The translations under genes were made by a program, and so were the position numbers. Under the pieces are notes generated by a model. That model saw nothing but the letters and a program-made list of their open reading frames with translations. It made no database searches and was not told where the DNA came from. Positions 1,942 through 62,042 of a stretch of DNA of 64,000 bases are shown here, piece by piece (the first letter of the stretch is position 1; each line of letters opens with the position of its first letter). The stretch spans positions 5,257 to 69,256 of the forward strand of contig JBEKFE010000016.1 of assembly GCA_050013475.1 (NCBI GenBank), in the 5' to 3' direction. The DNA comes from Bacteroidales bacterium. Lineage in GTDB: Bacteria > Bacteroidota > Bacteroidia > Bacteroidales > VadinHA17.

Positions 1942-2985
1942 TTGAAAAAGAAGATAATCAAGTTTCTTAAGTTTTTTGCATTTCTTGTTGTGGGATTGCT
2001 GCTCCTCTGGCTGGCTTTCCGCAATATCAATTTCAGCAAGCTTAAAAACGGATTGAAGGAAGCCAGATACATCTGGCTGATTCTTTCGATACTCTTTGCC
2101 ACCTTTGCCTACCTGAGCCGGGCAAGAAGATGGATCCTTCTGATCCAGCCACTAGGATACAATCCTAAACTTAAGAATTCCTTTTTCGCCATGATGACCG
2201 GCTACCTTGCCAACATGGCCCTTCCTCGTATCGGTGAGATATCAAAATGTGTTGCACTTGGAAGAAAAGAGAATATACCTGTCGATCAGCTTATTGGAAC
2301 TGTAGTTATCGAAAGAACCATCGACATTTTCACCCTTGCAACATTAATGGTCATAATGATCTTTGTAGAAAAGGGGATCCTTGGCCCTTTCCTGCTTGAT
2401 AATATCTTCACGCCCATTCAGCAGAGGGTCGCAGCAATCTTCGGATCAGCGATGGTTTTCTGGCTGCTTCTCCTGTTTTCAGGTTTCCTTATACTATTAA
2501 TTATATATATGCTCCGCAGGAGGCTTGTCAGGGTCAGGTTTTTTGCAAAGCTTTTCCTCGCCGGCAGGGGTATCATTCATGGGCTTAAGACAATTGCCCG
2601 GCTTCAGCGTAAATGGGAGTTCGTCTTCCATACAGTATTTATCTGGATAAATTATTTTCTCATGACGTGGGTCGTTGTTTTCGCCGTCCAGGCAACGTCA
2701 CATCTCGATATTGCTGACGGCTTATTTCTTCTTGTTGTAGGAGGACTTGCCATGACTGCCCCCGTTCAGAGCGGTCTTGGTGCTTTCCATTTTATAGTAT
2801 CAAGGGCTCTTCTTGTCATTTACGGGATAAGCACGGAGGACGGACTTGTCTACGCCATCCTGGCTCACGAATCACAGTTGATCTTTGGAGCAATAGTAGG
2901 GATCTATTCATTTTATGCCCTCCTTAAAAAAGATCCCGATCTTTCCCCTTTGGATGATACCGGAGTACTGGAAAAAATCCCTTAG
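1942..2985 (+). CDS. polytopic membrane protein, UPF0104 / lysylphosphatidylglycerol-synthase-TM-region-like family
   Basis: 347 aa with about 8 hydrophobic helices and a basic N-terminus (KKKIIKFLKF). TTG start. The family assignment rests on overall architecture only. Confidence 0.55.
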   Translation: MKKKIIKFLKFFAFLVVGLLLLWLAFRNINFSKLKNGLKEARYIWLILSILFATFAYLSRARRWILLIQPLGYNPKLKNSFFAMMTGYLANMALPRIGEISKCVALGRKENIPVDQLIGTVVIERTIDIFTLATLMVIMIFVEKGILGPFLLDNIFTPIQQRVAAIFGSAMVFWLLLLFSGFLILLIIYMLRRRLVRVRFFAKLFLAGRGIIHGLKTIARLQRKWEFVFHTVFIWINYFLMTWVVVFAVQATSHLDIADGLFLLVVGGLAMTAPVQSGLGAFHFIVSRALLVIYGISTEDGLVYAILAHESQLIFGAIVGIYSFYALLKKDPDLSPLDDTGVLEKIP

Positions 2986-2989
2986 TGTC

Positions 2990-3048
2990 CCCTTGTGATG
3001 ACCTTTGTGACCTTCGTGGTTAATTTCTTTTTTACCACAAAGGAAGAG
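2990..3048. repeat. word-stutter palindromic element (CACAAAGG/CACGAAGG word type)
   Basis: The sequence is cccttgtgatgacctttgtgaccttcgtggttaa-tttctttt-ttaccacaaaggaagag. The segment ccttcgtggttaa / ttaccacaaagg forms an 11-bp imperfect hairpin right after the stop codon. Confidence 0.6.
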
Positions 3049-4443: not shown

Positions 4444-6804
4444 TCAGTAACGCTCCGTATTGTTACCTCTTCTGGAGGTCGATTTCTTGACCCTGCTGCA
4501 GTCAAGCTCCATATTAAATCCGGCCGGACGTTCGAATATTTCTGTTTCCATACTGCTGAACTGAGGATCGGCATAAAGCTTTTTCAGGAAAAGCCCGTAG
4601 ATCGGAAGAGCAATATGTGCCCCCTGCCCCTCATCAAGCGTCTCAAAATGTATGCTCTGATCTTCCCATCCGCTCCAAACACCTGCCACAAGATCCGGAA
4701 CCACACCCATGAACCAGCCGTTGCCGTGATTCTGGGTCGTCCCGGTTTTTCCCCCGATCTGGTTGGTCAGCTTATAGGTATACCTGAGTCCGATACCTGA
4801 CCCTTCATTCACCACTCCCTGCAGAAGATTAAGCATCAGGTAAGCCTGGTCTTCACTTATTACCTCCTCCACCTTTGGAGTGAATGTCGAGATCACATTG
4901 CCGTTCCGGTCTTCTATCCTTGTCACATACATTGGCCTTGTATAGACACCTTTGTTGGCGAAGGTACTGTAAGCTCCCACCATCTCTTCAAGCGAAATAT
5001 CCGAAGTCCCCAGGAAGATCGAGATAACAGGATCAATAAAGCTTCGTATTCCCATGCGATGCATCAGATCGACAACTGCCTGGGGAGTGAACTGTGTCAT
5101 AAGCCATGCTGAAATATAGTTTTCGGATTTTGCCAGGCCCCATTTGAGGGTTACCCATTTCCCGTGATAGGCCTTCGGACCTGAACTGCGAGGGGAATAG
5201 ACAGAATCCCTTCCGTCCACCTTAATCTCGAAGGTCCTGGGTATATTTTCAACTTCATAGCACGGTGAATATCCGTTTTGCATTGCCAGGGTGTATACAA
5301 ACGGCTTTATCGTGCTGCCAACCTGTCGTTTCTGGTCTGTTACGGCATCATATTTAAAGTACCTGAAATCGGGGCCCCCGACATAAGCTTTCACATATCC
5401 CGTGTGCGGGTCGGCGACCAGGAATGAGGAGCGCATTATATACTTATAGTATTTAATGGAATCGAGCGGTGTCATCACAGTATCCCTCTCTCCTTTCCAG
5501 GAAAATATTTTCATCCTGATCGGTGTATTGAAGTTGATCATGATGGAGTCCTCCGGCGTCTTTTTCCTTATGAGTGCCTTGTACCGGTCGGTCCTTCTTA
5601 TGGTTGTCTGAAGTATATCATCGATCTCCTTTTTGGTCAGATCGTCTGAATAAGGCGGGTTTTTGAATTTTTTTGCAACCCTGTAGAATGCGGGCTGGAT
5701 ATCCTTTGAAAGGTGTTCGGCCAGAGCTTCTTCGGCATATTTCTGCATCTTTGAATTGATGGTGGTATATATTTTTATACCATCCTTATACAGATTATAA
5801 TTCGATCCGTCAGGCTTTTTATTCTTTCTGCACCATCCGTACAAAGGATTATTTTCCCACTGCCAGAGGGCATCCTTGTACTGATCTTCATATGAGTACA
5901 TCCGTCTGTCGGGTTCATACCTGATCATCGTGGTCCGTAAAAACTCCCTGAAATATGTAGCAAGACCAAGATTATGGTCCTCCTCCCTGAAGTCGAGCGT
6001 GAGAGGAAGCTTTTTAAGGGAATCTGCAACTGAGGGTGTAAGGTAGCCATATTTTACCATCTGGCTCAGCACCACATTTCTTCTTTTAAGTGTCTGGTCA
6101 GGTCTTTTTACCGGGTTGAAAAATGCTGAATTCTTAAGCATCCCCACCAGCATTGCCGACTGTTCAATATTAAGCGAATCTGGAGTAGTATTAAAATATA
6201 TCTGTGCTGCCGATCTTATTCCCACTGCCTTGTTGACAAAGTCAAAAGAGTTGAGATACATCGTAACTATCTCCTCCTTGGTATAGTTCTTTTCAAGCTC
6301 AACTGCCGTGTACCATTCCTTGAATTTTGAAACCCCAAGGTTCATCTTCTGCCTTATCCTTGATGACCCGATGCTGTCTGTCTCCCTGGTCTTGTACAGG
6401 TTCTTTGCAAGCTGCTGGGTTATTGTACTCCCACCTCCTGCTTCCTGGCCAAGTATCACCGATCTTACGATCGCCCTTCCAAGTCCTCTTATGTCAATGC
6501 CTGAATGCCTGTAAAATCTTATATCCTCAGTTGCTATAAGTGCATCGATAATGTTAGGGGATATATCCTTATATTCGGTCCATGTCCTGTTCTGAAAATA
6601 GTATTTTCCGAGAAGAACCCCGTCTTCTGAATAGACTTCTGCCGCCAGGTTGTTTTCCGGGTTTTCAAGGTCCTCAAATGTAGGCATCGGACCAAGCTTT
6701 TCCTTCGAGATCAGAATGAACAGAACTACTATTAGAATAAAGGGGAGAGAGAAAAGTGACCAGAACCAGATCAGGTATTTTCTGTTATGGGAATTGCCTT
6801 TCAT
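4444..6804 (-). CDS. mrcA: class A penicillin-binding protein 1A (transglycosylase/transpeptidase)
   Basis: Glycosyltransferase motifs EDIRFYRHSGID and GGSTITQQL, transpeptidase motifs STIKP and KTGTT, and an N-terminal membrane anchor. The ATG at 6804 (MKGNSHNRK) is preferred over the TTG at 6828. Confidence 0.88.
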   Translation of the reverse strand: MKGNSHNRKYLIWFWSLFSLPFILIVVLFILISKEKLGPMPTFEDLENPENNLAAEVYSEDGVLLGKYYFQNRTWTEYKDISPNIIDALIATEDIRFYRHSGIDIRGLGRAIVRSVILGQEAGGGSTITQQLAKNLYKTRETDSIGSSRIRQKMNLGVSKFKEWYTAVELEKNYTKEEIVTMYLNSFDFVNKAVGIRSAAQIYFNTTPDSLNIEQSAMLVGMLKNSAFFNPVKRPDQTLKRRNVVLSQMVKYGYLTPSVADSLKKLPLTLDFREEDHNLGLATYFREFLRTTMIRYEPDRRMYSYEDQYKDALWQWENNPLYGWCRKNKKPDGSNYNLYKDGIKIYTTINSKMQKYAEEALAEHLSKDIQPAFYRVAKKFKNPPYSDDLTKKEIDDILQTTIRRTDRYKALIRKKTPEDSIMINFNTPIRMKIFSWKGERDTVMTPLDSIKYYKYIMRSSFLVADPHTGYVKAYVGGPDFRYFKYDAVTDQKRQVGSTIKPFVYTLAMQNGYSPCYEVENIPRTFEIKVDGRDSVYSPRSSGPKAYHGKWVTLKWGLAKSENYISAWLMTQFTPQAVVDLMHRMGIRSFIDPVISIFLGTSDISLEEMVGAYSTFANKGVYTRPMYVTRIEDRNGNVISTFTPKVEEVISEDQAYLMLNLLQGVVNEGSGIGLRYTYKLTNQIGGKTGTTQNHGNGWFMGVVPDLVAGVWSGWEDQSIHFETLDEGQGAHIALPIYGLFLKKLYADPQFSSMETEIFERPAGFNMELDCSRVKKSTSRRGNNTERY

Positions 6805-50103: not shown

Positions 50104-50218
50104 TTTTTATCATCTCCCGGATTTTCCCCGGGATTAGGTTTTGGCACCTTTATCACTTATCAGGCGATGGGTTGCCAGGGTTTCTCAGAGCCTAATCTCT
50201 CCGCCCTTCTTAATAAAA
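50104..50218 (-). promoter_or_regulatory. SAM-I (S-box) riboswitch aptamer upstream of metY
   Basis: The minus-strand RNA is UUAUUAAGAAGGGCGGAGAGAUUAGGCUCUGAGAAACCCUGGCAACCCAUCGCCUGAUAAGUGAUAAAGGUGCCAAAACCUAAUCCCGGGGAAAAUCCGGGAGAUGAUAA. P1 (UUAUUA/UGAUAA), the GGCGGAG kink-turn region, the CCCUGGCAACC junction and GGUGCCAA all match the S-box consensus. Confidence 0.85.
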
Positions 50219-50370
50219 CCAAACACCTTTCGAATGGAAAGAATATTTGATCAGTGGGTGCAAAAATAATGAAGTTTTTTTAAATTCCAAAAAAAACAGC
50301 CCCCAACTCCCTAATAAGAAGTTTTATATTAATAATATTAGCTTTTTATAGTGTAAAATGGATTTTTTCT

Positions 50371-52076: not shown

Positions 52077-53945
52077 ATGTCAGACAGCCCGTTTATATAT
52101 CGGTCTTCTGTAGTAATGATCGGAGGGGTGGCTCTTGGAGGAGACCATCCGATCAGACTGCAGTCGATGACGAACACCAACACACTTGATACCAGCGCTT
52201 CGGTAGCCCAGTGCATCAGGATCATCGAGGCAGGAGCTGATTTTGTCAGGCTTACTGCCCAGGGAATAAAGGAGGCCGAAAACCTTGCGAGCATAAAAAC
52301 TGCCCTGAAGAAAGCAGGATTTGAAACGCCTCTTATTGCAGACATACATTTCAATCCGGCAGCGGCTGAAACAGCAGCAGCGATCGTTGAAAAGATAAGG
52401 ATCAATCCCGGAAATTATGCCGATAAAAGAGCCTCATTCGAAAAAATTGAACTTACCGAAAAAGAGTACACCGGGGAGCTTGAGCGGATACATTCAAGGC
52501 TTCTCCCCCTGATAAATATCTGCAGGGCAAACAGCACAGCTATCCGGATCGGCGTGAATCATGGCTCCCTTTCCGACAGGATTATGACACGCTATGGCAA
52601 TACTCCTCTCGGAATGGCAGTATCTGCAATGGAGTTTATAAGGATTTTTCAGGCTGAGAATTTCAACAACTTGGTCCTGTCAATGAAATCTTCTGATATT
52701 GGCGTGATGATCGGATCGGTAAGGACAGCCATAAAAATGATGCAGGAGGAGGGCTTTGCCTGTCCGATACATCTTGGTGTTACCGAGGCAGGCGAGGGTG
52801 AGGATGGCAGGGTACGGTCGGCAGCCGGAATAGGAGCCCTGCTTACTGAAGGAATCGGAGATACAATAAGAGTCTCCCTTTCCGAAGAGCCCGAGAATGA
52901 GATACCTGTTGCACGGAAGCTTGTTCAATTTATACCGAGAGGTACATCAGCATCAAGACCGGTTAGGCCGGCAGCAATTAAATCACTTCCTGAAAAACCG
53001 GAAATTCTCAGGCAGATAAAAGGACCTCTTGTCATTGCCAACATGACGCAGTATGTCACCCTCAACCCTGAGGCTTACAGAGATGCCGGCTACACTGTTG
53101 ATGAGACATCAGGCACCATTGTCAGGGGTGATGGCGCAGCCGATATGATAATTGCACGCGATTGCCCGGAAGTGATCCCGGCAAAGGTATTGATGGTTGT
53201 ACCCTTTAAGATCTGGCTTCAAAACAGGGAACGTGAAAATCTCTTCCCGCTTTTCTCACCGGAGACATATACAGGATTACCTGACAGATCGGAAAAGCTT
53301 AACCTTCTTCTTACAGGTTCACATTTCAGTAAAGAACTCGTTGCCAGGATTGATCCCCCAACCTCTTTGCTGATCTTCACCTATGATCCGACGAAGGAGA
53401 GATATGCCCCTGAGAAGCTCTTCACAGCGCTTGATGAGACCGGCACACCTCTTAATGTAATTCTCAATCCTGTTTTTGCAGAAAATGATCCGGAAGATCT
53501 TATGGTTAAGGCTTCTTCGATCCTTGGTGCTTATCTTACCGACAGGAGGATCGCAGGTTTATCGGTTACCAACAGGGGAGAGATCCGCTACAATTGCATA
53601 AACAGATTATGTTTTTCGATCCTCCAGTGCACCGGAACGAGGATAACGCGAACGATCTATCTTTCATGTCCCACATGCGGCAGGACAAAATTCAACCTGC
53701 AGGAGGCCGTGAAAAAGGTAAGAGAAAAGACTGGTCATCTTAAGGGTCTAAAGATCGCGGTAATGGGCTGCATTGTAAACGGACCCGGCGAGATGGCAGG
53801 CGCCGACTGGGGATATGTGGGGGCAGCTGACGGAAAGGTTCATATCTATAAAGGCACCCTGCCTGTCCTTAAGAATATTCCCGAAGAAGTTGCAACTGAC
53901 GAGTTACTAAGATTAATACAGGAAGATATTAAATTAAAAGAATAA
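52077..53945 (+). CDS. ispG: 4-hydroxy-3-methylbut-2-en-1-yl diphosphate synthase (long, insert-containing form)
   Basis: N-terminal TIM barrel (IRINPGNY, GVNHGSL) and C-terminal 4Fe-4S cysteines (CPTCGRT, GCIVNGPGE). The 622-aa length fits the three-domain type. Confidence 0.93.
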   Translation: MSDSPFIYRSSVVMIGGVALGGDHPIRLQSMTNTNTLDTSASVAQCIRIIEAGADFVRLTAQGIKEAENLASIKTALKKAGFETPLIADIHFNPAAAETAAAIVEKIRINPGNYADKRASFEKIELTEKEYTGELERIHSRLLPLINICRANSTAIRIGVNHGSLSDRIMTRYGNTPLGMAVSAMEFIRIFQAENFNNLVLSMKSSDIGVMIGSVRTAIKMMQEEGFACPIHLGVTEAGEGEDGRVRSAAGIGALLTEGIGDTIRVSLSEEPENEIPVARKLVQFIPRGTSASRPVRPAAIKSLPEKPEILRQIKGPLVIANMTQYVTLNPEAYRDAGYTVDETSGTIVRGDGAADMIIARDCPEVIPAKVLMVVPFKIWLQNRERENLFPLFSPETYTGLPDRSEKLNLLLTGSHFSKELVARIDPPTSLLIFTYDPTKERYAPEKLFTALDETGTPLNVILNPVFAENDPEDLMVKASSILGAYLTDRRIAGLSVTNRGEIRYNCINRLCFSILQCTGTRITRTIYLSCPTCGRTKFNLQEAVKKVREKTGHLKGLKIAVMGCIVNGPGEMAGADWGYVGAADGKVHIYKGTLPVLKNIPEEVATDELLRLIQEDIKLKE

Positions 53946-54083
53946 ACCACGGAGTGACACAGAGTTAAAACGGAGTAACACTGTCCCGATAATCATAAAT
54001 ATTCAATAAATATTTCACTCCGTGCAACTCCGCGTTGTCCTCCCCCGATAGATCGGGGCAAGCTGTGAAACTCCGTGGTTAAA
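53945..54083. repeat. ORF-less word-stutter palindromic element (CACGGAG word type)
   Basis: The left arm aaccacggagtgacacagagttaaaacggagtaacactg (53945-53983) is 36/39 identical to 56466-56504. The right arm tcccccgatagatcggggcaagctgtgaaactccgtggttaaa (54041-54083) is 42/43 identical to 57085-57127. Confidence 0.8.
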
Positions 54084-54193
54084 TTCTTCGATTTGGATAA
54101 AAATCTCCCTCTCCTCCCATCACCCTTCCGCCTCGCGGAACTTCGTCACGGAGTTTATCCCGCAAAGCGGGGTTCCTTGTCTCCCACTCATTT

Positions 54194-56323
54194 TTATGCA
54201 AGCCGGTAGTCCAGCTGCTTTTTCTGAAGGTCGGCTTTTACGACTTCAATATCTATCCGGTCGCCAAGAGTGTAAACCTTCCCTGTATGCTTTCCCTTAA
54301 TGCAATAATTCTCCTCATCATACTCAAAATAGTCGTCAGAAAGCTCACGGATATGTATCATACCCTCGCACTGGTTTTCGATAATCTCGACATAAATGCC
54401 CCATTCGGTAACTCCCGAAATGACCCCTGCAAACACTTTCCCAAGCTTGTCGCTCATGAACTCGACCTGCTTGTATTTGATCGAAGCTCTCTCGGCTTCA
54501 GTAGCGAGTCTTTCCATTTTTGAAGAGTGCTCGCAGAGCTTTGCGTACTTGTCGTGACCCGTTGGTGTTTCACTGTCGAGATAGGCTGTAAGCAGACGGT
54601 GAACCATCATATCAGGATAACGGCGGATCGGAGAGGTAAAATGGGTGTAATGCTTAAATGCAAGTCCATAGTGCCCTATATTATCTGTTGAGTACACGGC
54701 TTTTGCCATTGACCTCAGGGCAAGTGTTTCGATTATATTCTGCTCCTTTTTACCGGTAACATCCTTAAGCAGCCTGTTCATTGCCTTGGGGAGAGAGGTC
54801 TCGGATTCTCCATCAAGCTTATACCCGAATCGCTTTATGAAATGACTGAATGAATTGATCTTATCCGGATCGGGCTTGTCGTGTATACGGTAAACGAATG
54901 TCTTCCCCTTTAATTTCTTACCGACCAGTTCGGCTACTTTCCTGTTTGCAAGAAGCATGAATTCCTCGATAAGCTGGTTTGCTGTTCCGAAATCGCGGAA
55001 CCTTATTCCGACTGGTTTCCCGTTTTCATCCAGATCGAACTGGACTTCAACCCTTTCAAAACCGAATGCTCCTGCAGCAAATCGCTTTGCCCTTAAAAGC
55101 CGTGAGAGCCTGTGAAGTACCTCCACCTGCTCTTTCATATCACCCTCACCAGAGTCGATCACCTTCTGGGCATCGCCATACGAAAACCTCTTATCGGAAT
55201 TTATGATCGTCCTGCCGAACCACTCCGACAGCACCTCTGCCTTGTCGTTAAGTTCAAATACTGCCGAATAGGTAAGCTTATCTTCATTAGGAATAAGTGA
55301 ACAGATATGGTTTGAAAGTCTTTCGGGAAGCATTGGTACCACCCTGTCGACAAGATATACGGATGTGGCTCTCTGCCTGGCCTCCTTTTCAAGCAGGGAT
55401 TCAGGTTTGACATAATAGGTGACATCTGCTATATGTACCCCTGCCTCCCAGTTCCCGTTTTCAAGCTTACGGAGTGAAAGGGCATCATCAAAATCGCGCG
55501 CGTCCGCAGGGTCGATCGTAAATGTGGGAATATTCCGGAAGTCCCTTCTCCCTTTCAGATCTTCTTCGGTTATCACTTCGGAGATAGACTCTGCAGCCTG
55601 CTCCACCTCTTCGGGGAAGTCGTAAGGAAGTTCAAACTCGGCCAGGATGGCATGGATCTCAGTCTCATGCAGGCCGGGATATCCGAGCACCTGGATTATC
55701 TCGGCTACCGGGTTTTTCGATTTCGGATCCCATTCGATCACCCTTGCCACTGCTTTCTGTCCCTGCAATGCACCGTTTATTTTGTTACCCGGGATAAACA
55801 GGTCGAAGGGCATGTTCTTGTTATCGGGCATTAGGAATGCAAAGGTTGGCATTATCTCGACCGTCCCGACGAATGTTGTTCTTGCTCTTTCAATTATTTC
55901 CACCACCTCACCTTCGGGTCTTGCTCCTTTTCGCTTTGCATAAAGCCACACTTTTACCTTGTCGCCGTGAAGGGCTGTTTTGAGGTTCTTTGCAGTCACG
56001 AACACATCCTCCTCCATCTCTTCTGTCGAGATGAATCCGTAACCCATCCTGGTAAGATCGACTGTGCCCGTTACATATCCTCTGGTGGCCCTGGCTCTGA
56101 ATTTGCCTTCATACAGCTCCTGGATAAGTCCCTGGTTTTTCAACTCTTTGAGTATATCGGGGATCAGTTTCCTCTCCGGTTCTTCGGATAGATTCAGCTT
56201 TTTTGATATCTGCTTATAATTGAAGCCTTTCCCGTCGCCTTCGGTAAGGATAGAAAGAACCTGTTCTGTAAGAATCTTTCTGGGGATGCCTGATTTCTTT
56301 CCCCCTTTGTGTTTTTTTGACAT
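54194..56323 (-). CDS. rnr: ribonuclease R
   Basis: 709 aa with cold-shock/OB domains, RNB domain motifs (DPADARDFDDA, YLVDRVVPMLP) and a C-terminal S1 domain. Confidence 0.93.
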   Translation of the reverse strand: MSKKHKGGKKSGIPRKILTEQVLSILTEGDGKGFNYKQISKKLNLSEEPERKLIPDILKELKNQGLIQELYEGKFRARATRGYVTGTVDLTRMGYGFISTEEMEEDVFVTAKNLKTALHGDKVKVWLYAKRKGARPEGEVVEIIERARTTFVGTVEIMPTFAFLMPDNKNMPFDLFIPGNKINGALQGQKAVARVIEWDPKSKNPVAEIIQVLGYPGLHETEIHAILAEFELPYDFPEEVEQAAESISEVITEEDLKGRRDFRNIPTFTIDPADARDFDDALSLRKLENGNWEAGVHIADVTYYVKPESLLEKEARQRATSVYLVDRVVPMLPERLSNHICSLIPNEDKLTYSAVFELNDKAEVLSEWFGRTIINSDKRFSYGDAQKVIDSGEGDMKEQVEVLHRLSRLLRAKRFAAGAFGFERVEVQFDLDENGKPVGIRFRDFGTANQLIEEFMLLANRKVAELVGKKLKGKTFVYRIHDKPDPDKINSFSHFIKRFGYKLDGESETSLPKAMNRLLKDVTGKKEQNIIETLALRSMAKAVYSTDNIGHYGLAFKHYTHFTSPIRRYPDMMVHRLLTAYLDSETPTGHDKYAKLCEHSSKMERLATEAERASIKYKQVEFMSDKLGKVFAGVISGVTEWGIYVEIIENQCEGMIHIRELSDDYFEYDEENYCIKGKHTGKVYTLGDRIDIEVVKADLQKKQLDYRLA

Positions 56324-56465
56324 TTTAAAAATTTTTGCAAAGTTAGCAAAATCTTAACCCATCCTATGTCTTCACAATTCTATTAATATCAAACTATTCA
56401 TAATACTTTGGGGATTTATATTAAGACTTCTAATCAATTGAATTTTGAATTGACTTTTAAGATAT

Positions 56466-56504
56466 AACCACGGAGTGACACTGAGTTATCACGGAGTAAC
56501 ACTG
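56466..56504. repeat. left arm of the gene-carrying word-stutter element
   Basis: aaccacggagtgacactgagttatcacggagtaacactg lies 75 nt upstream of the GxxExxY gene. Confidence 0.8.
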
Positions 56505-56579
56505 TTTTGAGATTAATAAAAATTTGGCATTTGTGTTAGAAATATTTTATCTTTATTATGTCTCGCTAAAACTATTTTT

Positions 56580-56957
56580 ATGCAGCTATTACATCAGGAA
56601 CTTACCAGCTCCATCTTAAAATGTGCTTATAAAGTACATAGTGCCCTTGGACCTGGTTTATTGGAATCTGCTTATGAAGAATGTCTTCATTATGAACTTG
56701 ATAAAATTGGTCTTTTTGTAATTAAACAAAAACCCATGCCGCTGGTTTATGAAGACAAAAAACTTGATCTTGGCTACAGAATTGATCTCTTTGTTGAAGG
56801 CAAAGTCATAATTGAGATAAAATCAGTAGAATCATTTAACCCTGTTCATATGGCTCAATTATTGACTTATTTAAAATTATCGGGCTGCAGAGTTGGCTTT
56901 CTAATTAATTTCAATGTACTTTCCTTGAAAGAAGGTATTCAAAGAGTAATAGTTTAG
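56580..56957 (+). CDS. GxxExxY protein (PD-(D/E)XK nuclease superfamily)
   Basis: 125 aa with the motif GLLESAY, then DLFVEGKVIIEIK (D..E.K nuclease-like core). This is the typical length and layout of the GxxExxY family. Confidence 0.85.
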   Translation: MQLLHQELTSSILKCAYKVHSALGPGLLESAYEECLHYELDKIGLFVIKQKPMPLVYEDKKLDLGYRIDLFVEGKVIIEIKSVESFNPVHMAQLLTYLKLSGCRVGFLINFNVLSLKEGIQRVIV

Positions 56958-56987
56958 AATTTATGCAGTAAATATTTATTAAATATT

Positions 56988-57150
56988 CCACTCCGTGTTT
57001 TACTCTTTGAGACTCCGTGGTTAAAACTTTTTCCCGGAATGACGGAGGTTGAAATGTCCCACTCCGTGTAACTCCGTGTTTTACTCCCCCGATAGATCGG
57101 GGCAAGCTGTGAGACTCCGTGGTTAAAACTTTTTCCCAGAATTACAGTGG
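56988..57150. repeat. duplicated right arms of the gene-carrying word-stutter element
   Basis: The first right arm is cactccgtgttttactctttgagactccgtggttaaaac (56988-57025). The second is the longer cccactccgtgtaactccgtgttttactcccccgatagatcggggcaagctgtgagactccgtggttaaaac (57058-57127). Each is followed by tttttccc(g/a)gaat. Confidence 0.8.
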
Positions 57151-57248
57151 TGGACTGAAATTTACAATCATTAACATTTTGAAGTTCAGAATTTCCCCGA
57201 TTATGTAGTTCCTCTGGCAGGTATCACCCCCGAAGCCGTATTTTTTTA

Positions 57249-57256
57249 TAAATTTG
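57249..57256 (+). promoter_or_regulatory. possible Bacteroidetes -7 promoter box
   Basis: TAAATTTG matches TAnnTTTG exactly and lies 22 nt upstream of the ATG at 57278. I saw no clear -33 TTTG, so support is weak. Confidence 0.3.
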
Positions 57257-57277
57257 ATATATAAACAGTTTGGAAAG

Positions 57278-57559
57278 ATGGATCTAAGATCGGTGCCCTC
57301 ACGCTCCCCTTCGGTTGTGACCCGGAAAACAGGAAATGAATATGTGCTTGTGCCTGTTACAGATAACATTGCCGATATGGACAGTGTTTATACTCTGAAC
57401 GAGACCGGTGCCTATATCTGGGAACAGATCGATGGCAACAGGACCATTTCCGATATCATTGCCCTTCTCACAGGTGAATTCGATATCGATAAAAAAACCG
57501 CTTCTGCCGACCTGCTTGACTTTTTAAGTAAAATGAGTGCCTATCTGATCATTAAATAA
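57278..57559 (+). CDS. PqqD-family peptide chaperone (RiPP recognition element-like)
   Basis: 93 aa. VVTRKTGNEYVLVPV...YTLNETGAYIWEQIDGNRTISDIIALLTGEFDID...ASADLLDFLSKM is the classic PqqD layout. The ATG at 57278 is preferred over the TTG at 57254. Confidence 0.8.
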   Translation: MDLRSVPSRSPSVVTRKTGNEYVLVPVTDNIADMDSVYTLNETGAYIWEQIDGNRTISDIIALLTGEFDIDKKTASADLLDFLSKMSAYLIIK

Positions 57560-57570
57560 GAGGAAGTATT

Positions 57571-57625
57571 GTCTTGCAGTCCTGCAGTCCTGCAGTCTTG
57601 CAGTCGTACCACTCCTTCGTACCGG
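57571..57625. repeat. 8-nt stutter repeat between the PqqD and kinase genes
   Basis: The units are gtcttgca gtcctgca gtcctgca gtcttgca gtcgtacc actccttc gtaccgg. Confidence 0.7.
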
Positions 57626-57637
57626 TAACTATTTATA

Positions 57638-58525
57638 ATGAAAAGCTATAATCTGAATATTGCTGATTATAAAATTAAGATCGAATCTGCGGAAAAAGGG
57701 TTGGAACTGGTGCCTTCAGAAAGATTCGCCGGATATATCTGTTCAGATGAAAATTCGGATATTTCAATAAAGGTCCATCCGGAAGCTTACCGGCTACCCG
57801 ATGGCACCGAAAGGGTGTTTCATGCACCGCTCGTTGAAGAGATCGACGGGTCATATATTCAGAAGGATGATAACTTCTGGAGCATTTACAGGCATCGCTC
57901 CGACCTGTTTATAAAAACCATATTTCCCTATGCGGGGTCAGAAAAGAAAGCTGTTCTGAAATTCTCCCTCACCAGCCGGGAATGGGACCTTTATTTTGAG
58001 GGAGCCGGATCCTCTACCGATCCGCTTGATTACCCGCTCGACGGACTTATCCTCTATTATCTTGCCGCAATGAACGGTGATATAATGGTCCATGCCTCCG
58101 GGGTGAACTATGCCGGGAAGGGATACATTTTTTCAGGGGTATCCGGCAAAGGAAAAACCACGATGGCAGGCTTATGGAACAAGACAGGCAGCATGGTCAT
58201 CCACGACGACAGGCTGATAATCAGGAATATTGACGGAAAATACTTCATGTATAACACTCCCGTCTATAAAAATGACCTGCCCTCACAGTCGGAGATATCC
58301 AGGATATTCCTGATAAATCACGGAAAGGAGAACAGGCTTGTTCCCTTAAAGGGCGCCCGGTCAGTAAGCCTTTTTCTGGCCAACTGCATACAGCATAACT
58401 GGAACAGTGAGCTCATTGCCAGGCTTATTGGTTCTGTATCAGTAATGTGCTCCACGCTTCCTGTCGCACAGCTTTTCTTCAAACCCGACAAAAGCATAAT
58501 TGATTTTATCCTCTATTATGAATAG
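57638..58525 (+). CDS. HPr kinase/phosphorylase-like (HprK-related) serine kinase
   Basis: The C-terminal half has MVHASGVNYAGKGYIFSGVSGKGKTTMAGLW, the HprK C-terminal-domain P-loop context. 295 aa. Confidence 0.75.
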   Translation: MKSYNLNIADYKIKIESAEKGLELVPSERFAGYICSDENSDISIKVHPEAYRLPDGTERVFHAPLVEEIDGSYIQKDDNFWSIYRHRSDLFIKTIFPYAGSEKKAVLKFSLTSREWDLYFEGAGSSTDPLDYPLDGLILYYLAAMNGDIMVHASGVNYAGKGYIFSGVSGKGKTTMAGLWNKTGSMVIHDDRLIIRNIDGKYFMYNTPVYKNDLPSQSEISRIFLINHGKENRLVPLKGARSVSLFLANCIQHNWNSELIARLIGSVSVMCSTLPVAQLFFKPDKSIIDFILYYE

Positions 58526-58970
58526 TAAAAAGAATTTCCGCGATTCGGTAAAGAATATCGGTACCTCCCTGCTTTCGGAAGGGACAACCATCAGGATAAA
58601 GGCTCACGGGTACAGCATGTATCCGTCAATCAAGCCCGGTTCTCTCATAATTATTGAACCGCTAAGGGTAAAGGGCGATCCGGTAAGGGGAGAGATCGTT
58701 GCAATTAAAAGGGAGAACGGACTTGTTGTGCACCGGATAGTTAAGATCCTCATCAAAAACGGGGTAAGATATTACGTGGCCCGCGGCGACAGCAATGCCT
58801 ATGCCGATCATCCTGTACCTGCTTCCTCCATCGCAGGAAGAGTGATAAAAGCAGAGGCAACAGGTGAAAATCCTCATCCGGCAGATATTGCAATAAATAA
58901 GAGACCAAGTTATTTCCTTAACAGGATAAGAGTTATTTTTATAATGATCCGTAAGAAGCTTGGTTCATAA
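58518..58970 (+). CDS. S24/S26-family Ser-Lys peptidase (signal-peptidase-I-like)
   Basis: The catalytic serine motif HGYSMYPSI, then GEIVAI, VHRIVK (lysine region) and GDSN. The ATG at 58518 overlaps the kinase stop by 8 nt. Confidence 0.7.
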   Translation: MNSKKNFRDSVKNIGTSLLSEGTTIRIKAHGYSMYPSIKPGSLIIIEPLRVKGDPVRGEIVAIKRENGLVVHRIVKILIKNGVRYYVARGDSNAYADHPVPASSIAGRVIKAEATGENPHPADIAINKRPSYFLNRIRVIFIMIRKKLGS

Positions 58971-60768
58971 AACCCGCGAATTGAAGAAAGTTAAGCTATT
59001 CACAAAATCGCTGAGGCTCGTATGGGTAAGCGCTCCTCTCTGGGCTACCGTCAATGTGGTGGTCTCAGTGGTCAGAAGCATCCTGCCGCTTGCCCTGGTC
59101 TTTCTTGTCAAATATCTTATTGATGCAATTACATCAAGAGCCGGCAGCGCCAATGATCATTCTTTAATGCCTGTATTATACCTTATTATCGCTGTTGTGG
59201 CCGTATTTTTCCTGGATGAGATCTCTTTCGAGTTTTCAAATTTTGTCAGGAAAAAGCAGTCCCTCAGGCTCGAATCATACATGTACGACCTTCTTCATAA
59301 AAAATCGGTGAGCCTCGATCTTATAAATTTTGAAAATCCCGCCTATTTTGATATTCTTTCCAGGGCCTCCAGGGAGGCTACCTGGCGTCCGGGCAATATC
59401 CTGAATAATCTTGTTTCTGTCTTCAGGGGACTGCTGTCGCTGCTGCTGATGTCGGGCCTGCTGGCATCACTAAGCTGGTGGGTCGTGCTGCTTCTTCTGG
59501 TTGTAAATATCCCGGGGGTATGGCTGAGGCTCTGGTTTGCGGATATCCTTTATAACTTCCAGCGCGATCAGACTCCGGAAGCAAGAAGATCGGCCTATTA
59601 TAACTGGATACTTACAGGCGACAGGCCATCGAGGGAACTGAGGCTGTTCGGCCTGGGAAATTATTTCATTTCACTGTTCAGGGAATCATTCACAAGGCAG
59701 AAGGAGGAGGAGATCAATATCCTGAGAAAAAGGACAATTATCGAGACCATATCCACCCTGTTCAAAGCTGCAGCCCTGTTTATTGTTCTGTACGAGGTGG
59801 CGGTCAGAACAATTTCCGGCCGTCTGTCGCTCGGACAGATGGCAATGTTCATCCTGGCGTTCCGCCAGGGGATGATGTATATCAGGGAGACATTCAGCTC
59901 CCTTGCCTCACTGTATGAAGACAGCCTTTTCATTGGCGATACCTTTGAATTCCTGGATCTGAAGGAGAATATCACCGCCCTGCAGCCTGAAGTAAAGCCA
60001 GTTCCGCTCATATCAGAGATCGAAGCAGGAGGAGTTACCTTTACCTATCCTGGCAACAGCAGGCCTGCGATCAGTAATGTATCCTTTAAAATAAGGAAGG
60101 GAGAAGTTGTCGCACTTGTCGGTAACAACGGTTCGGGAAAGAGCACGCTTGTGAGGCTGCTTTGCAGGCTTTATGACCCCGATAGCGGACAGATACTTTA
60201 CGACGGGGCAGATATCCGGAATATGGATCCCGGGACTTACCAGAAAATGTTCTCTGTGGTTTTCCAGGATTTCATGCTTTACAACCTCAGCGCCGGTGAG
60301 AATATCAGACTTGGGAATATTGACGGTCAGGGATCTCAGGAGAAGATCGAATCTTCAGCTTCCATAACCGGGGTTGATGATCTTGTCAGGAGTCTTCCCA
60401 GGGGTTATGATACCGTTATAGGCAATCTGTTCGACGACAGCCGTGAACTAAGCTGGGGCGAATGGCAGAAGATTGCAATTTCCAGGGCGTTGTACCGTGA
60501 TGCTCCCGTGCTCATCCTCGATGAACCTTCTAGTGCGCTCGACGCCGGCACTGAATATGAGATCTTCAGCCGCTTCAGGGAGATCGTAAGAGGAAGGACA
60601 GCGATACTTATAAGCCACAGGTTCACAAATGTGAAGCTGGCCGACCTCATCATAGTGCTCGATAACGGGGTTGCAGCGGAGAGCGGATCGCACGATGAGC
60701 TTATGAAGAGACAGGGTATCTATTATAATATGTACCTGAAACAAAGCAGCCGCTTCGGTGATGAGTAA
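58960..60768 (+). CDS. ABC exporter, fused permease/ATPase
   Basis: A 6-TM exporter domain, then Walker A GNNGSGKST, signature LSWGEWQKIAISRA and Walker B LILDEPSSALD. There is no N-terminal C39 peptidase domain. The start is non-ATG (TTG at 58960 or 58981). Confidence 0.85.
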   Translation: MVHKTRELKKVKLFTKSLRLVWVSAPLWATVNVVVSVVRSILPLALVFLVKYLIDAITSRAGSANDHSLMPVLYLIIAVVAVFFLDEISFEFSNFVRKKQSLRLESYMYDLLHKKSVSLDLINFENPAYFDILSRASREATWRPGNILNNLVSVFRGLLSLLLMSGLLASLSWWVVLLLLVVNIPGVWLRLWFADILYNFQRDQTPEARRSAYYNWILTGDRPSRELRLFGLGNYFISLFRESFTRQKEEEINILRKRTIIETISTLFKAAALFIVLYEVAVRTISGRLSLGQMAMFILAFRQGMMYIRETFSSLASLYEDSLFIGDTFEFLDLKENITALQPEVKPVPLISEIEAGGVTFTYPGNSRPAISNVSFKIRKGEVVALVGNNGSGKSTLVRLLCRLYDPDSGQILYDGADIRNMDPGTYQKMFSVVFQDFMLYNLSAGENIRLGNIDGQGSQEKIESSASITGVDDLVRSLPRGYDTVIGNLFDDSRELSWGEWQKIAISRALYRDAPVLILDEPSSALDAGTEYEIFSRFREIVRGRTAILISHRFTNVKLADLIIVLDNGVAAESGSHDELMKRQGIYYNMYLKQSSRFGDE

Positions 60769-61933
60769 GGAGCTGGAAATAAAGGATGATGAGATATTGC
60801 TGCTCGGGCTTTGCAGACCTTTTTTTACAGCCGAACAGGCTGAAAAGCTGAAAGGGCTTGCAGCCAGGATAAGCGACTGGGATCATTTTGTTTCGCTGGC
60901 CAATGAGCACGGAGTAGCATCACTTGTATATAATAACCTGCTCGGGCTTTCACTTCTTTCATATCTTCCCCCGGCATCTGCAGAATTTCTTCAGAAAACA
61001 CGGATGCTGAATATAAGCCGTAATGCTTTTCATATTACGGCTATCGAGGAGGTCCTTTCGATCCTTAACAGGGAAGGCATAAAGGTGGTACTGCTTAAAG
61101 GGCTGGCGCTTGAGTTCTCTGTATATGGAAATTCCAGTCTGAGACAGATGACCGATGTTGATATCCTTATAGATCGCCGTGATTTCATAAGGGCCAGGCA
61201 TGTTATGATGGAAAACGGGTATGATTCAATGCCTGTCAAGTCGGGTCTTCACAAGCCGATCATTGCCTTCACCGGTAAGCATCTGCCCACGATGTTGAAG
61301 AACGGGGCATCAATCGATATTCACATAGAGCTTTTCCCCGGAAAGAGGAACAGGCTTACAGATATGCTGTTTGATTCATCGGCTGAAATAAAGGTTGACA
61401 GGGAGAGGGCCTTTATCCCGTCGCCGCAGCTCTTTTTCCTTTTTCTTGTAAAGCATCTTTACCAGCACGAGATAAATAATGAATCACAGCTGCGGTTATA
61501 CTCCGATCTTGTATTTCTCCTCGGGATGCACAGGGATGAAATAATAAACTGGGACCTGCTGGCCAGGGCTTCGGAGGCGGGCATCACTAAGATCCTTGCG
61601 TGGAAGCTTGAGCTCCTTCGCGATCTGTGGGGGATACAGTTTCCGCAGTGGATCGATGATTTTATTGATAAGTGGTTCATCCCGGATTCAATAAACAAAT
61701 TCGTCTTTTTCCTCAAGAGTCCCAAGAATAACAAGCCGGATCGGCCGGGTTATGTCTACAGGCAGATCATCAGGGATATTCCGGGCATCCACCGGAAGCT
61801 GCTTTTCATTGCCGGTGATATTTTTCCTTCTGTCAGGTTTATGAAGGAGCGGTATGGGTGTAAAACCAATTGGAAAGCTGTTCTTTATTATCCAGTCAGG
61901 CTGGGGAAGCTGATCCTGCTGGTTTCAAGATAG
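60758..61933 (+). CDS. nucleotidyltransferase-fold protein (uncharacterised NTP_transf_5-like family)
   Basis: LKGLALEFSVYGNSSLRQMTDVDILI is the G[SN]-x(n)-DxD pol-beta-type NTase motif. 391 aa. It overlaps the ABC gene by 11 nt. Confidence 0.7.
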   Translation: MMSKELEIKDDEILLLGLCRPFFTAEQAEKLKGLAARISDWDHFVSLANEHGVASLVYNNLLGLSLLSYLPPASAEFLQKTRMLNISRNAFHITAIEEVLSILNREGIKVVLLKGLALEFSVYGNSSLRQMTDVDILIDRRDFIRARHVMMENGYDSMPVKSGLHKPIIAFTGKHLPTMLKNGASIDIHIELFPGKRNRLTDMLFDSSAEIKVDRERAFIPSPQLFFLFLVKHLYQHEINNESQLRLYSDLVFLLGMHRDEIINWDLLARASEAGITKILAWKLELLRDLWGIQFPQWIDDFIDKWFIPDSINKFVFFLKSPKNNKPDRPGYVYRQIIRDIPGIHRKLLFIAGDIFPSVRFMKERYGCKTNWKAVLYYPVRLGKLILLVSR

Positions 61934-62042
61934 TCTGAGGTCTGGGGGTCTGGGGGTCTGGGGGTCTGGAGTCTTAGGTCCTGGGGTCATAAAGTGTTTC
62001 TCTGCGCTCCCTGCGTAAAAATCTCTGAGAACTCTGCGGTTA
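61934..62042. repeat. 7-8-nt stutter repeat plus a CGCAGAG-type right arm
   Basis: The stutter is tctgagg tctggggg tctggggg tctggggg tctggag tcttagg tcctgggg (61934-61986). It is followed by ctctgcgctccctgcgtaaaaatctctgagaactctgcggtta (62000-62042). Confidence 0.7.

Follow-up and report, generated by a model that had tools for sequence, protein, structure and literature searches.

What ties a small nuclease gene to the palindrome that surrounds it, and why does the same palindrome stand nearby without a gene? The question is raised by a Bacteroidales genome in which rnr is flanked by two palindromic elements, copies A and B, which point the same way and are separated by 2.4 kb, with ispG and pqqD-like genes as further neighbours. 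We analyzed them within a 64 kb window (the whole stretch of DNA under study). All features placed by a preliminary description of this locus were recovered at their coordinates, and the parts of both copies are as follows.

53945..54083: copy A, a gene-less ("empty") palindromic element of 139 nt (repeat and folding analyses)
53945-53983: left arm of copy A, with three cores
53984-54015: AT-rich loop of copy A
54016-54083: right arm of copy A
54042..54058: side hairpin CCCCCGATAGATCGGGG, 17 nt, GC-rich, nested in the right arm of copy A
54133..54156: solo forward core (CACGGAGT at 54147) with complementarity to the outermost part of A's right arm, apparently a decayed additional half-element
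56466..56504, + strand: left arm of copy B, with cores CACGGAGT, CACTGAGT and CACGGAGT
56505..56579, + strand: AT-rich 5' region of copy B, probably a promoter or 5' leader, carrying TCTCGCTAA (56561-56569), a motif conserved across the family, 19 nt ahead of the ATG
56580..56957, + strand: GxxExxY gene, 125 aa, PD-(D/E)XK fold, PF13366
56988..57025, + strand: inner right arm of copy B (R1), with two reverse cores, terminating in ACTCCGTGGTTAA, without side hairpin
57005..57154, + strand: tandem duplication with a 102-nt period, comprising the right-arm end and outside flank (57005-57052 versus 57107-57154, 88% identical)
57059..57127, + strand: outer right arm of copy B (R2), with a side hairpin at 57086-57102; over 68 nt it agrees with A's right arm at 92.6%

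The first bases of copy A coincide with the TAA stop codon of ispG, and the sequence 3' of the arms at A and B is AAATTCTTCG or AAAACTTTTTCCC. As first described, the left arms (53945-53983 and 56466-56504) agree at 36 of 39 positions and the right arms (54041-54083 and 57085-57127) at 42 of 43. Overall, the arms of A and B are 92–93% identical, idiosyncratic side hairpin and loop end included, and within this genome the two are sister copies. The loop of A is homologous to both inner ends of the B interior, its end matching the stretch 3' of the B gene at 90% over 29 nt, a resemblance that had already been pointed out. Most simply, A would be a B-type cassette minus an interior of ~444 nt (gene and 5' region), plausibly a non-autonomous form, and the view of A and B as versions without and with a gene of one element type is upheld. 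The second, shorter right arm reported for B is real (56988-57025), but it proved to be no independent arm, belonging instead to a ~102-nt tandem duplication of the right arm and ~35–45 nt of outside flank; the duplicated 37-nt tail (57012-57048 and 57114-57150, 33 of 37 identical) is likewise contained in its 48-nt repeat. Within the window, CCACGGAGT occurs five times, always within A and B (0.30 expected), and CACGGAGT occurs 12 times, 11 of them in 53948-57121 (0.91 expected); no shuffle equalled either count. Since only two elements occur in 64 kb, and genomes with 85–95% identical RNase R carry neither A nor B, the bracketing of rnr looks incidental. In the closest relative (95% RNase R identity) the whole intergenic region is replaced, and both sites hold palindromes of a different family.

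The only ORF between the arms of B is the 125-aa PD-(D/E)XK gene, and any transposase family is absent from the element, which agrees with the earlier view that it is not a classical IS. Identification of the ORF as GxxExxY was borne out by TIGR04256 (146.7 bits against a cut-off of 35, E 3.4e-43, profile positions 1-116 of 116 covered) and by PF13366 (PDDEXK_3; 141.4 bits against a cut-off of 22, E 2.1e-41), its sole Pfam match. No substitution occurs at G26-L-L-E29-S-A-Y32, D69, E79-I-K81 or Q93 in 32 close homologues; a set of 66 diverse ones keeps D69 without exception and E29, E79, K81 and Q93 in at least 90%. An AF2 model built from the diverse alignment (pLDDT 93.3; a model from a shallow alignment, pLDDT 54.6, was discarded) has an alpha-alpha-beta-beta-beta-alpha-beta core, and among solved structures it comes closest in fold to Cas4, lambda exonuclease and RecB-type nuclease domains (Foldseek, all E > 1e-3, TM 0.45–0.52). 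From alignment and model, the PD-(D/E)XK nuclease site of the B protein is predicted to be intact. The protein shares with these enzymes the common core fold and the E...D...ExK...Q motif but lacks both Fe-S cluster cysteines and a helicase partner. It had no match in the PDB, by sequence or by profile, nor in PHROGs, and PADLOC returned nothing beyond weak Cas4-type motif matches. PF13366 / TIGR04256, one of the large families without an assigned function, was entered as unknown in a 2012 survey of the PD-(D/E)XK superfamily (PMC3424549).

The GC content of the gene is ~0.31–0.35 against ~0.47 for the host. With dN 0.11, dS 1.58 and a dN/dS of about 0.07, the gene is by this measure under strong purifying selection, its function evidently maintained. 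The family has many paralogues and a very large number of clusters (19,373 at 50% identity); dS between gene copies is saturated, so the copies are old, and the cassette persists at orthologous loci whose flanks are only 68–83% identical. GxxExxY homologues were not found in phage genomes and IMG/VR yielded a single match; the element is therefore not phage-borne.

Each arm consists of an array of two to four direct repeats of a lineage-specific 8-nt core (CACGGAGT here; general form CRCRRAK), and the two arrays are inverted around the gene module, with the outermost core closing the element (CCAC...GTGG). Core 2 follows core 1 after a step of 10 nt in 83% of arms, the next step, to core 3, has its mode at 11 nt, and the mean core step is 10.36 nt (~10.4; n = 225 arms), about one DNA turn. 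Left and right arms match at 90% in their cores and at 46% in the spacers between them. Their complementarity thus stems from the shared 8-nt core, and constraint on the arms appears to act on sequence rather than on pairing. The gene module that they enclose comprises a conserved 5' motif and a 375-nt ORF. Of 66 upstream regions examined, 51 carry this motif, TCTCGCTAA, and in 47 of these it lies inside the arms at a fixed distance of 19–22 nt upstream of the ATG; in the Bacteroidales clade there is no orientation bias towards neighbouring genes; both observations are compatible with a transcription start within the left arm. A sigma-70 promoter scan is uninformative for Bacteroidota.

Other lineages use other cores: CACAGAGG in Bacteroides finegoldii, CACAGAG in Bernardetia, CGCAGAGG in Gemmatirosa, CGCGAAG in Sphingomonas, CACGGATTCG in Treponema and CACAAAG in the IMG/VR contig. 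In every lineage compared the left arm is the reverse complement of the right, so that the arms are terminal inverted repeats with defined ends, and although the core varies with lineage or gene clade it always frames the gene. Where arms and gene are co-inherited, gene clade and core type will correlate in any case, which is not proof of recognition.

The association extends well beyond this genome. At least two forward cores within 200 nt upstream together with at least two reverse cores within 200 nt downstream were present at 47 of 58 non-identical GxxExxY genes, drawn from metagenomes and replicons of five phyla, as opposed to 0 of 240 control windows from the same loci. The arm-to-arm gap measures 443–537 nt in 43 of 45 cassettes. 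Conversely, among ORFs of 70–260 aa framed by arms in ~1.2 Mb of loci, 49 of 50 encode GxxExxY proteins, and cargo of other families between such arms was not found among the loci examined; these had been chosen either by protein or by arm pattern and so form a biased sample. Genes for PF05635 four-helix-bundle proteins may use similar arms. Pairing of gene and arms was seen in Bacteroidota, Planctomycetota, Spirochaetota, Gemmatimonadota and Pseudomonadota, and in the searchable papers on GxxExxY, PF13366, the IVS protein, Bacteroidetes REP and the cores we found it nowhere described, although the NCBIfam or InterPro entry text of TIGR04256 may refer to it. Contigs carrying the gene are mostly ~1 kb long.

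Empty hairpins are intergenic and outnumber occupied ones: among the matches listed for arm-selected genome loci (including Phycisphaerales and Treponema), ~37 were empty and 2 gene-bearing. The underlying scan of genome contigs with AACCACGGAGTNNCAC is a sample rather than a census, in which real elements are mixed with chance matches, estimated at thousands in 596 Gb. A 50 kb stretch of Gemmatirosa holds six empty hairpins and one gene, with an identical core in both. There, as at loci L189, L190, L192 and L217, the gene follows a second layout, lying between complete hairpins as opposed to inside split arms. At one further locus (L191), a group II intron sits at the hairpin end.

Arms and gene move as one unit of ~585 nt. 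Loci L141 and L148 have 585 nt in common at 90% identity, from AACCAC to GTGGTTAA, within unrelated flanks, and L124 and L136 likewise share a unit between unrelated flanks; the cassette boundaries fall at AACCAC...GTGGTT. The element ends are themselves palindromic and TTAA-like (TTAACC...GGTTAA), such that a target-site duplication is not definable against the available sites. Occupied loci L170 and L173 and the empty locus L007 adjoin the same gene, and an empty and occupied pair with near-identical flanks was not found among the loci compared. Nor were any two near-identical gene copies, as recent movement would leave, seen in different contexts among these loci. Vertical inheritance over long periods is as much to be expected of a domesticated gene as of a mobile one, and mobility, if any, requires host functions, as a 125-aa nuclease is unable to rejoin DNA alone.

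How are these observations best explained? Copies A and B might be no more than a local duplication around rnr without wider meaning, for which their proximity, direct orientation and arm identity speak. Arm searches beyond the window and the flank survey of GxxExxY genes refute this: the arms form a dispersed family, whose type recurs across several phyla in dozens of genomes and accompanies most of the GxxExxY genes examined, so that a purely local origin is practically ruled out. The preliminary description had further likened the element to the intervening sequences of 23S rRNA. On that reading, read-through transcription would bring the two arms together as a long stem for RNase III or the GxxExxY protein to cut, which would insulate the host operon and release a stabilised mRNA. 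The stable pairing of left and right arms that it presupposes is indeed predicted: copy A folds at −49.5 kcal/mol as RNA (z −6.5), −59.9 kcal/mol on the opposite strand (z −6.0) and −31.5 kcal/mol as ssDNA (z −7.1), and the whole B cassette at −180.8 kcal/mol (z −5.0) with its outer arms paired. Distant family members sit tightly in co-directional operons with gaps of ~3–60 nt (fabD|X|fabG; radA|X|FAD-dependent protein), where the arms must hence be transcribed, and the arms lack U-tract terminators, with no intrinsic terminator (GC-rich hairpin plus U-tract) at A or B. Against this, conservation is far higher in cores than in spacers; an arm pairs with its partner in the element no more stably than with an arm of another element (−31.8 versus −33.2 kcal/mol, permutation p 0.97); mismatches in the cores are not skewed to G·U on the gene strand (14 versus 18, p 0.6), 39 of 71 being transversions; and the period is ~10.4 nt, not 11. 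Orientation relative to neighbours shows no preference in the Bacteroidales clade, a conserved 5' motif lies inside the arms, and the 3' region alone is unstructured (z −0.67). An rRNA context is also missing, rRNA signature motifs being absent from ~200 loci; a gathering-threshold Rfam scan of the window found two riboswitches only and nothing at A or B, and Rfam 15 searched up to E 10 gave only chance miRNA-type matches (E 2–8) at the elements. Processing at the RNA level was therefore not borne out, and we judge it unlikely.

Two DNA-level alternatives were also weighed. The palindromes could be host REP-like elements, serving as nucleoid-protein sites, mRNA 3'-end stabilisers or insulators and spreading independently, at which GxxExxY genes moved by another enzyme insert or survive. 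The intergenic placement and great excess of empty hairpins fit this, as does the different palindrome family at both sites in the close relative, and other mobile DNA targets hairpins too, as the intron at L191 illustrates. Yet an unrelated host factor would leave unexplained why it is this one small family of genes that stands between such arms in five phyla, and the idea has further to contend with the near-exclusive identity of framed ORFs, with the joint travel of arms and gene up to the outer arm ends, and with cores that change between lineages or gene clades while always framing the gene; it is improbable to a similar degree. A homing-type selfish gene, whose nuclease cuts the centre of empty palindromes so that repair from an occupied copy inserts the gene with the arms as homology, would account for the finding of full and empty forms both within a single genome (A and B) and at an orthologous site (L170 and L007), for the position of the gene at the loop within a tight size range, and for the many paralogues and clusters. 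I-Ssp6803I is a homing endonuclease with a PD-(D/E)XK fold, and like such genes the present one is small and has occupied and empty versions of a repeated site, but an intron or intein is lacking, the target is a palindrome in dispersed copies, the arms co-travel and vertical persistence is long. The loop of A, homologous to both inner ends of B, also looks more like the product of cassette deletion than like an untouched target; many genes are flanked by complete hairpins instead of occupying one; the copies are old and stable at their loci; and empties remain much commoner than occupied copies. We consider homing the less plausible still.

On balance, and with moderate confidence, we favour an explanation that joins the build of the element, how specific and how widespread the association is, the joint movement of arms and gene, purifying selection and absence from relatives: B and A are a gene-bearing and a gene-less member of a widespread palindromic-element family tied specifically to GxxExxY nucleases, and the nuclease would act on the arms. 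In the mechanism we propose, the small PD-(D/E)XK nuclease would bind the phased cores as an oligomer and cut DNA at or in the arms; cutting might let the cassette and, in trans, the far commoner gene-less palindromes be copied or moved via host repair, and selection would then retain the gene long-term. More tentatively, GxxExxY proteins may be the enzymes of an unrecognised superfamily of bacterial palindromic mobile or maintained elements: a minimal Cas4/RecB-like nuclease that recognises phased arrays of ~8-nt cores and propagates or maintains its own cassette and a larger gene-less population, an analogue of REPIN-RAYT systems on another catalytic fold in five phyla. A fixed, family-wide DNA partner provides the first testable hypothesis for a GxxExxY substrate, with the core array readable beside each gene. 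If true, it would account for a class of intergenic palindromes that are abundant in Bacteroidota, Planctomycetota and other phyla and disrupt metagenome assembly, and if the nuclease is programmable by the core array, it would be a second enzyme class in the theme of repeats plus a domesticated nuclease, so far represented by RAYTs. The arms also offer a simple annotation signature that tells real cassettes from read-through "two-domain" gene calls.

By analogy, the relation between palindrome and nuclease resembles that of RAYTs with REPINs or of autonomous transposons with MITEs. MITEs and autonomous transposons with terminal inverted repeats, including eukaryotic ones, have subterminal arrays of binding-site-like repeats, gene-less derivatives resembling internal deletions and defined outer boundaries. 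The GxxExxY element shares terminal inverted repeats with repeat arrays, gene-less, deletion-like forms and defined boundaries, but it encodes no transposase of the DDE, serine or tyrosine type, and neither a target-site duplication nor recent transposition could be demonstrated. With REPIN-RAYT systems (PMC3116915, PMC2817692, PMC3333891) it has in common short, dispersed intergenic palindromes that far outnumber a single associated gene, a conserved, vertically kept gene framed by inverted repeats, and a lineage-specific repeat with matching copies beside the gene; the hairpin clusters at L189 and L190 resemble BIMEs. It is nevertheless not a member of that group: the enzyme is a 125-aa PD-(D/E)XK nuclease instead of an HUH/Y1 (IS200/IS605-like) transposase, the arms hold two to four phased 8-nt cores in place of a single imperfect REP palindrome of 20–40 nt with a GTAG or CGTC tag, and the gene often lies within one split palindrome, with many paralogues and clusters. 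Intervening sequences of 23S rRNA with an ORF of PF05635 (23S_rRNA_IVP) are mentioned in PMC11270868; they likewise frame a small ORF with inverted repeats, can form a long stem and are tolerated inside transcription units, whereas the present element lies outside rRNA, carries PF13366 rather than PF05635 cargo and has arms made of motif arrays with poorly matched spacers and no signs of selection at the RNA level.

The side hairpin of copy A has counterparts elsewhere: its module recurs at locus L154 (95% over 37 nt), and similar side hairpins are present in the arms of L162, L139 and L166.

Two palindromic elements of one type lie on either side of rnr, the gene-less copy A and the gene-bearing copy B. 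Sequence reading (53700-57400) together with repeat analysis bore out the anatomy given in the preliminary description, and the cargo of B, proposed there to be a GxxExxY gene, encodes a full-length GxxExxY / PDDEXK_3 protein.

Features of copies A and B in the window
53945-54083: copy A, gene-less palindrome starting at the TAA stop of ispG (gcpE), from sequence reading and repeat analysis; left arm AACCACGGAGTGACACAGAGTTAAAACGGAGTAACACTG, AT-rich loop of 32 nt, right arm ending ...GAAACTCCGTGGTTAA
56466-56504: left arm of copy B, 36/39 identical to the left arm of A
56580-56957, + strand: ORF of copy B, 125 aa, between the arms
56988-57025: inner right arm of copy B
57059-57127: outer right arm of copy B, its final 43 nt 42/43 identical to A
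57005-57154: tandem duplication, period 102 nt, of the right arm plus ~35-45 nt of outside flank, from repeat analysis
54042-54058 and 57086-57102: GC-rich side hairpin (CCCCCGATAGATCGGGG or variants)

For the 8-mer CACGGAGT, the 64 kb window has 12 occurrences compared to 0.9 expected, and 11 of the 12 sites fall within A or B, or immediately beside A. Folding recovered the stem anticipated between left and right arms: a long branched hairpin is predicted for A on both strands, as RNA or ssDNA (z -6.0 to -7.1), and the outer arms are paired in a whole-cassette fold of B (z -5.0). The second right arm and duplicated tail reported for B are present, and their nature is now redefined as the 102-nt-period tandem duplication of right arm and outside flank, which may be a by-product of end processing. 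Additional right arms also occur in other cassettes (loci L130, L151, L156, L160, L170/L173). Side hairpins like CCCCCGATAGATCGGGG were likewise seen in loci L154, L162, L139, L166, L134, L181 and L178; nested in just one arm of many elements, with either arm possible, the hairpin looks like a separate mini-insertion module. The GxxExxY gene of B is AT-rich (GC about 0.31-0.35 vs about 0.47 in its surroundings).

Arms of the A/B type, put forward as parts of an insertion module, were found by a pattern scan beyond the rnr locus, in further Bacteroidota, Phycisphaerales and Treponema. The arm-pattern scan covered one genome per species, and the matches listed are a mix of chance and real ones. 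Among them, real palindromes are 60-140 nt long, comprise 2-4 copies of CAC(G/A)GAGT followed by an equal number of ACTC(C/T)GTG, and stem from Bacteroidales, Rikenellaceae, Saprospiraceae, Cytophagales, Phycisphaerales and Treponema, with several genomes giving more than one palindrome locus. In a set of 225 distinct arms, a C stands before the outermost core (CCAC...). The first step (core 1 to core 2) measures 10 nt in 83% of these arms, the second (core 2 to core 3) is most often 11 nt, and core-to-core steps average 10.36 nt. Complete palindromes also stand in tandem groups of two to three, 3' of the gene in loci L189, L190 and L192; these groups, with a conserved ~20-nt spacer and the core CACGGA(T/G), resemble BIME clusters of REPs.

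The association of arms and GxxExxY genes is statistically specific. A metagenome scan with the GxxExxY protein yielded 80 loci. In nearly all close relatives, the ATG is preceded by forward cores at a distance of 80-135 nt and the stop codon is followed by reverse cores at 20-70 nt; 43 of 45 cassettes measure 443-537 nt from arm to arm. At least two forward cores upstream plus at least two reverse cores downstream accompany 47 of 58 GxxExxY genes (non-identical genes with sufficient flank) compared to 0/240 control windows from the same loci, and 49 of 50 arm-framed ORFs of 70-260 aa in all loci are GxxExxY; these counts rest on loci selected by protein or by arm pattern, which are biased samples and not a whole-genome census. 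The association is also phyletically broad: in a family of 19,373 clusters at 50% identity (E up to 1e-3), distant homologues (35-57% identity) on closed replicons from five phyla share this layout and have cores of their own.

Cores and cassettes in other genomes
Bacteroides finegoldii: core CACAGAGG
Bernardetia: core CACAGAG
Gemmatirosa: core CGCAGAGG
Sphingomonas: core CGCGAAG, cassette between fabD and fabG
Treponema saccharophilum: core CACGGATTCG
IMG/VR contig: core CACAAAG
482837-483265 of Sphingomonas parapaucimobilis NZ_CP155749.1: cassette L212, in the fatty-acid synthesis operon
L217:413-1294, and P0241-P0252 and similar: two-domain gene calls of 270-295 aa, tandem cassettes in a single ORF

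In L212, whose arms have the core CGCGAAG, 34 nt separate the cassette from fabD upstream and 3 nt from fabG downstream. Tight co-directional insertions were also seen in B. finegoldii (radA / GxxExxY / FAD-dependent protein) and Bernardetia (ade / GxxExxY / mannose-1-phosphate guanylyltransferase). Some 'two-domain' GxxExxY members are two read-through cassettes whose linker includes translated cores.

Gene-less copies are frequent, with ~37 empty elements vs two gene-bearing ones (L109, L095) at arm-selected loci among the matches listed. A 50-kb stretch of Gemmatirosa contains six empty palindromes and a single gene, located between two complete palindromes, with one core common to all. Since loci L141 and L148 have 585 nt in common at 90% identity, from AACCAC to GTGGTTAA, in unrelated flanks, arms and gene recur, on sequence comparison, as one moving unit. 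Sequence divergence marks the gene copies as old (nucleotide identity 77% in the median; dS 1.58, dN 0.11) and under purifying selection (dN/dS 0.07), and several locus groups retain the cassette at the orthologous site with flanks diverged to 68-83% identity. The occupied loci L170/L173 and the empty locus L007 adjoin the same downstream gene. The absence of any orientation bias relative to neighbouring genes, together with a conserved motif (TCTCGCTAA) fixed 19-22 nt upstream of the ATG, suggests that the GxxExxY gene is expressed on its own.

The preliminary description left two directions, A as B minus the gene or B as A plus a cargo, and the relationship itself holds, as the loop of A is homologous to both inner ends of B. 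The reading best in line with this homology is that A is a B-type cassette minus its interior; copying of the gene into an A-type palindrome is the possible reverse course, and we prefer deletion. Palindromes are also targets of other mobile DNA. A 1.9-kb insertion (L191:540-2472), which encodes a reverse transcriptase of the group II intron type (459 aa, YADD motif), lies at the exact outer end of a palindrome that follows a GxxExxY gene; the uninterrupted allele is L192 (3389-3493), whose gene is 99% identical.

The arms had been suggested to form a structure-defined RNA stem, or an RNase III-processed cassette, and several analyses gave no sign of selection for a stem. Pairing of an element's own arms is no better than with foreign arms (-31.8 vs -33.2 kcal/mol, p 0.97), left arms match the reverse complement of right arms at 90% of core positions and just 46% of spacer positions, and the 3' part alone has no structure. 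Core mismatches show no G·U bias on the gene strand (14 vs 18; a cruder test agrees), and over half of them are transversions. Although cores vary between lineages, the left arm always equals the reverse complement of the right. Inverted symmetry has thus been preserved, the pattern to be expected of terminal inverted repeats that a single protein binds. An RNA helix has 11 bp per turn; from established helix geometry we infer that the ~10.4-nt period is a better fit to one turn of B-DNA. The layout had also been likened to that of rRNA intervening sequences, an identity we rejected given the lack of rRNA and the different cargo family. By analogy, REPIN-RAYT systems and MITE/autonomous-element pairs would be the nearest functional counterparts. 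The element belongs to neither, as these use an HUH and a DDE transposase, respectively, whereas a PD-(D/E)XK protein is found here.

In this protein, E29, D69, E79, K81 and Q93 show no variation across 32 close homologues. A set of 66 diverse homologues retains D69 throughout, and conservation of the other four residues is at least 90%. A Foldseek search with an AF2 model from a diverse alignment (pLDDT 93.3) found no solved structure that is close; Cas4 SSO0001, lambda exonuclease, Bax1 and AddAB/AdnAB nuclease domains matched best (TM 0.45-0.52, E >1e-3), in agreement with weak Cas4 motif matches in PADLOC. PDB sequence and PHROG searches gave no match, and phage genomes no homologue. A 2012 survey of the PD-(D/E)XK superfamily lists PF13366 with function unknown (PMC3424549). 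The literature searched holds no description of the association with arms, the free text of the TIGR04256 curators aside, and prior informal knowledge of it is possible. In the mechanism we propose, the nuclease would recognise the phased cores and cut at or within the arms, as the basis for propagation or maintenance of both cassette and gene-less palindromes.

The identical locus occurs on two short contigs from other metagenome samples, one of which breaks inside the left arm. Five relatives with 85-95% identical RNase R keep the cysS-ispG-rnr neighbourhood and lack both A and B, which marks the two as lineage-specific additions; the rnr-ispG gap is 248 nt in the window vs 1, 4, 4 or 63 nt in relatives. 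The flank comparison proposed earlier thus gave a presence/absence difference and no readable target-site duplication, the spacers being too reshuffled among the relatives compared. That A and B flank rnr appears to be incidental; the two direct copies could recombine and delete rnr, and we saw no sign that they do. In the closest relative (L203, RNase R 95% identical), the pqqD-rnr spacer of 219 nt is occupied by a different, GC-rich palindrome (…ACCCCGACCGAAGCGTCGGGGGGAGGTGG…), which occurs on both sides of rnr.

Palindromes of the other family in L203, at positions equivalent to A and B
2780-3000
5130-5305

Directly downstream of cassette B, a RiPP-type cluster (window 57254-62000) encodes a PqqD-like protein, a ScmC-like protein, an S24 peptidase, an ABC transporter and an NTP_transf_5 protein; its position adjoining rnr is conserved in relatives. 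The window also holds two riboswitches.

Riboswitches in the window
50104-50219, - strand: SAM-I riboswitch, 70.8 bits
39157-39217, + strand: SAM-II riboswitch, 58.3 bits
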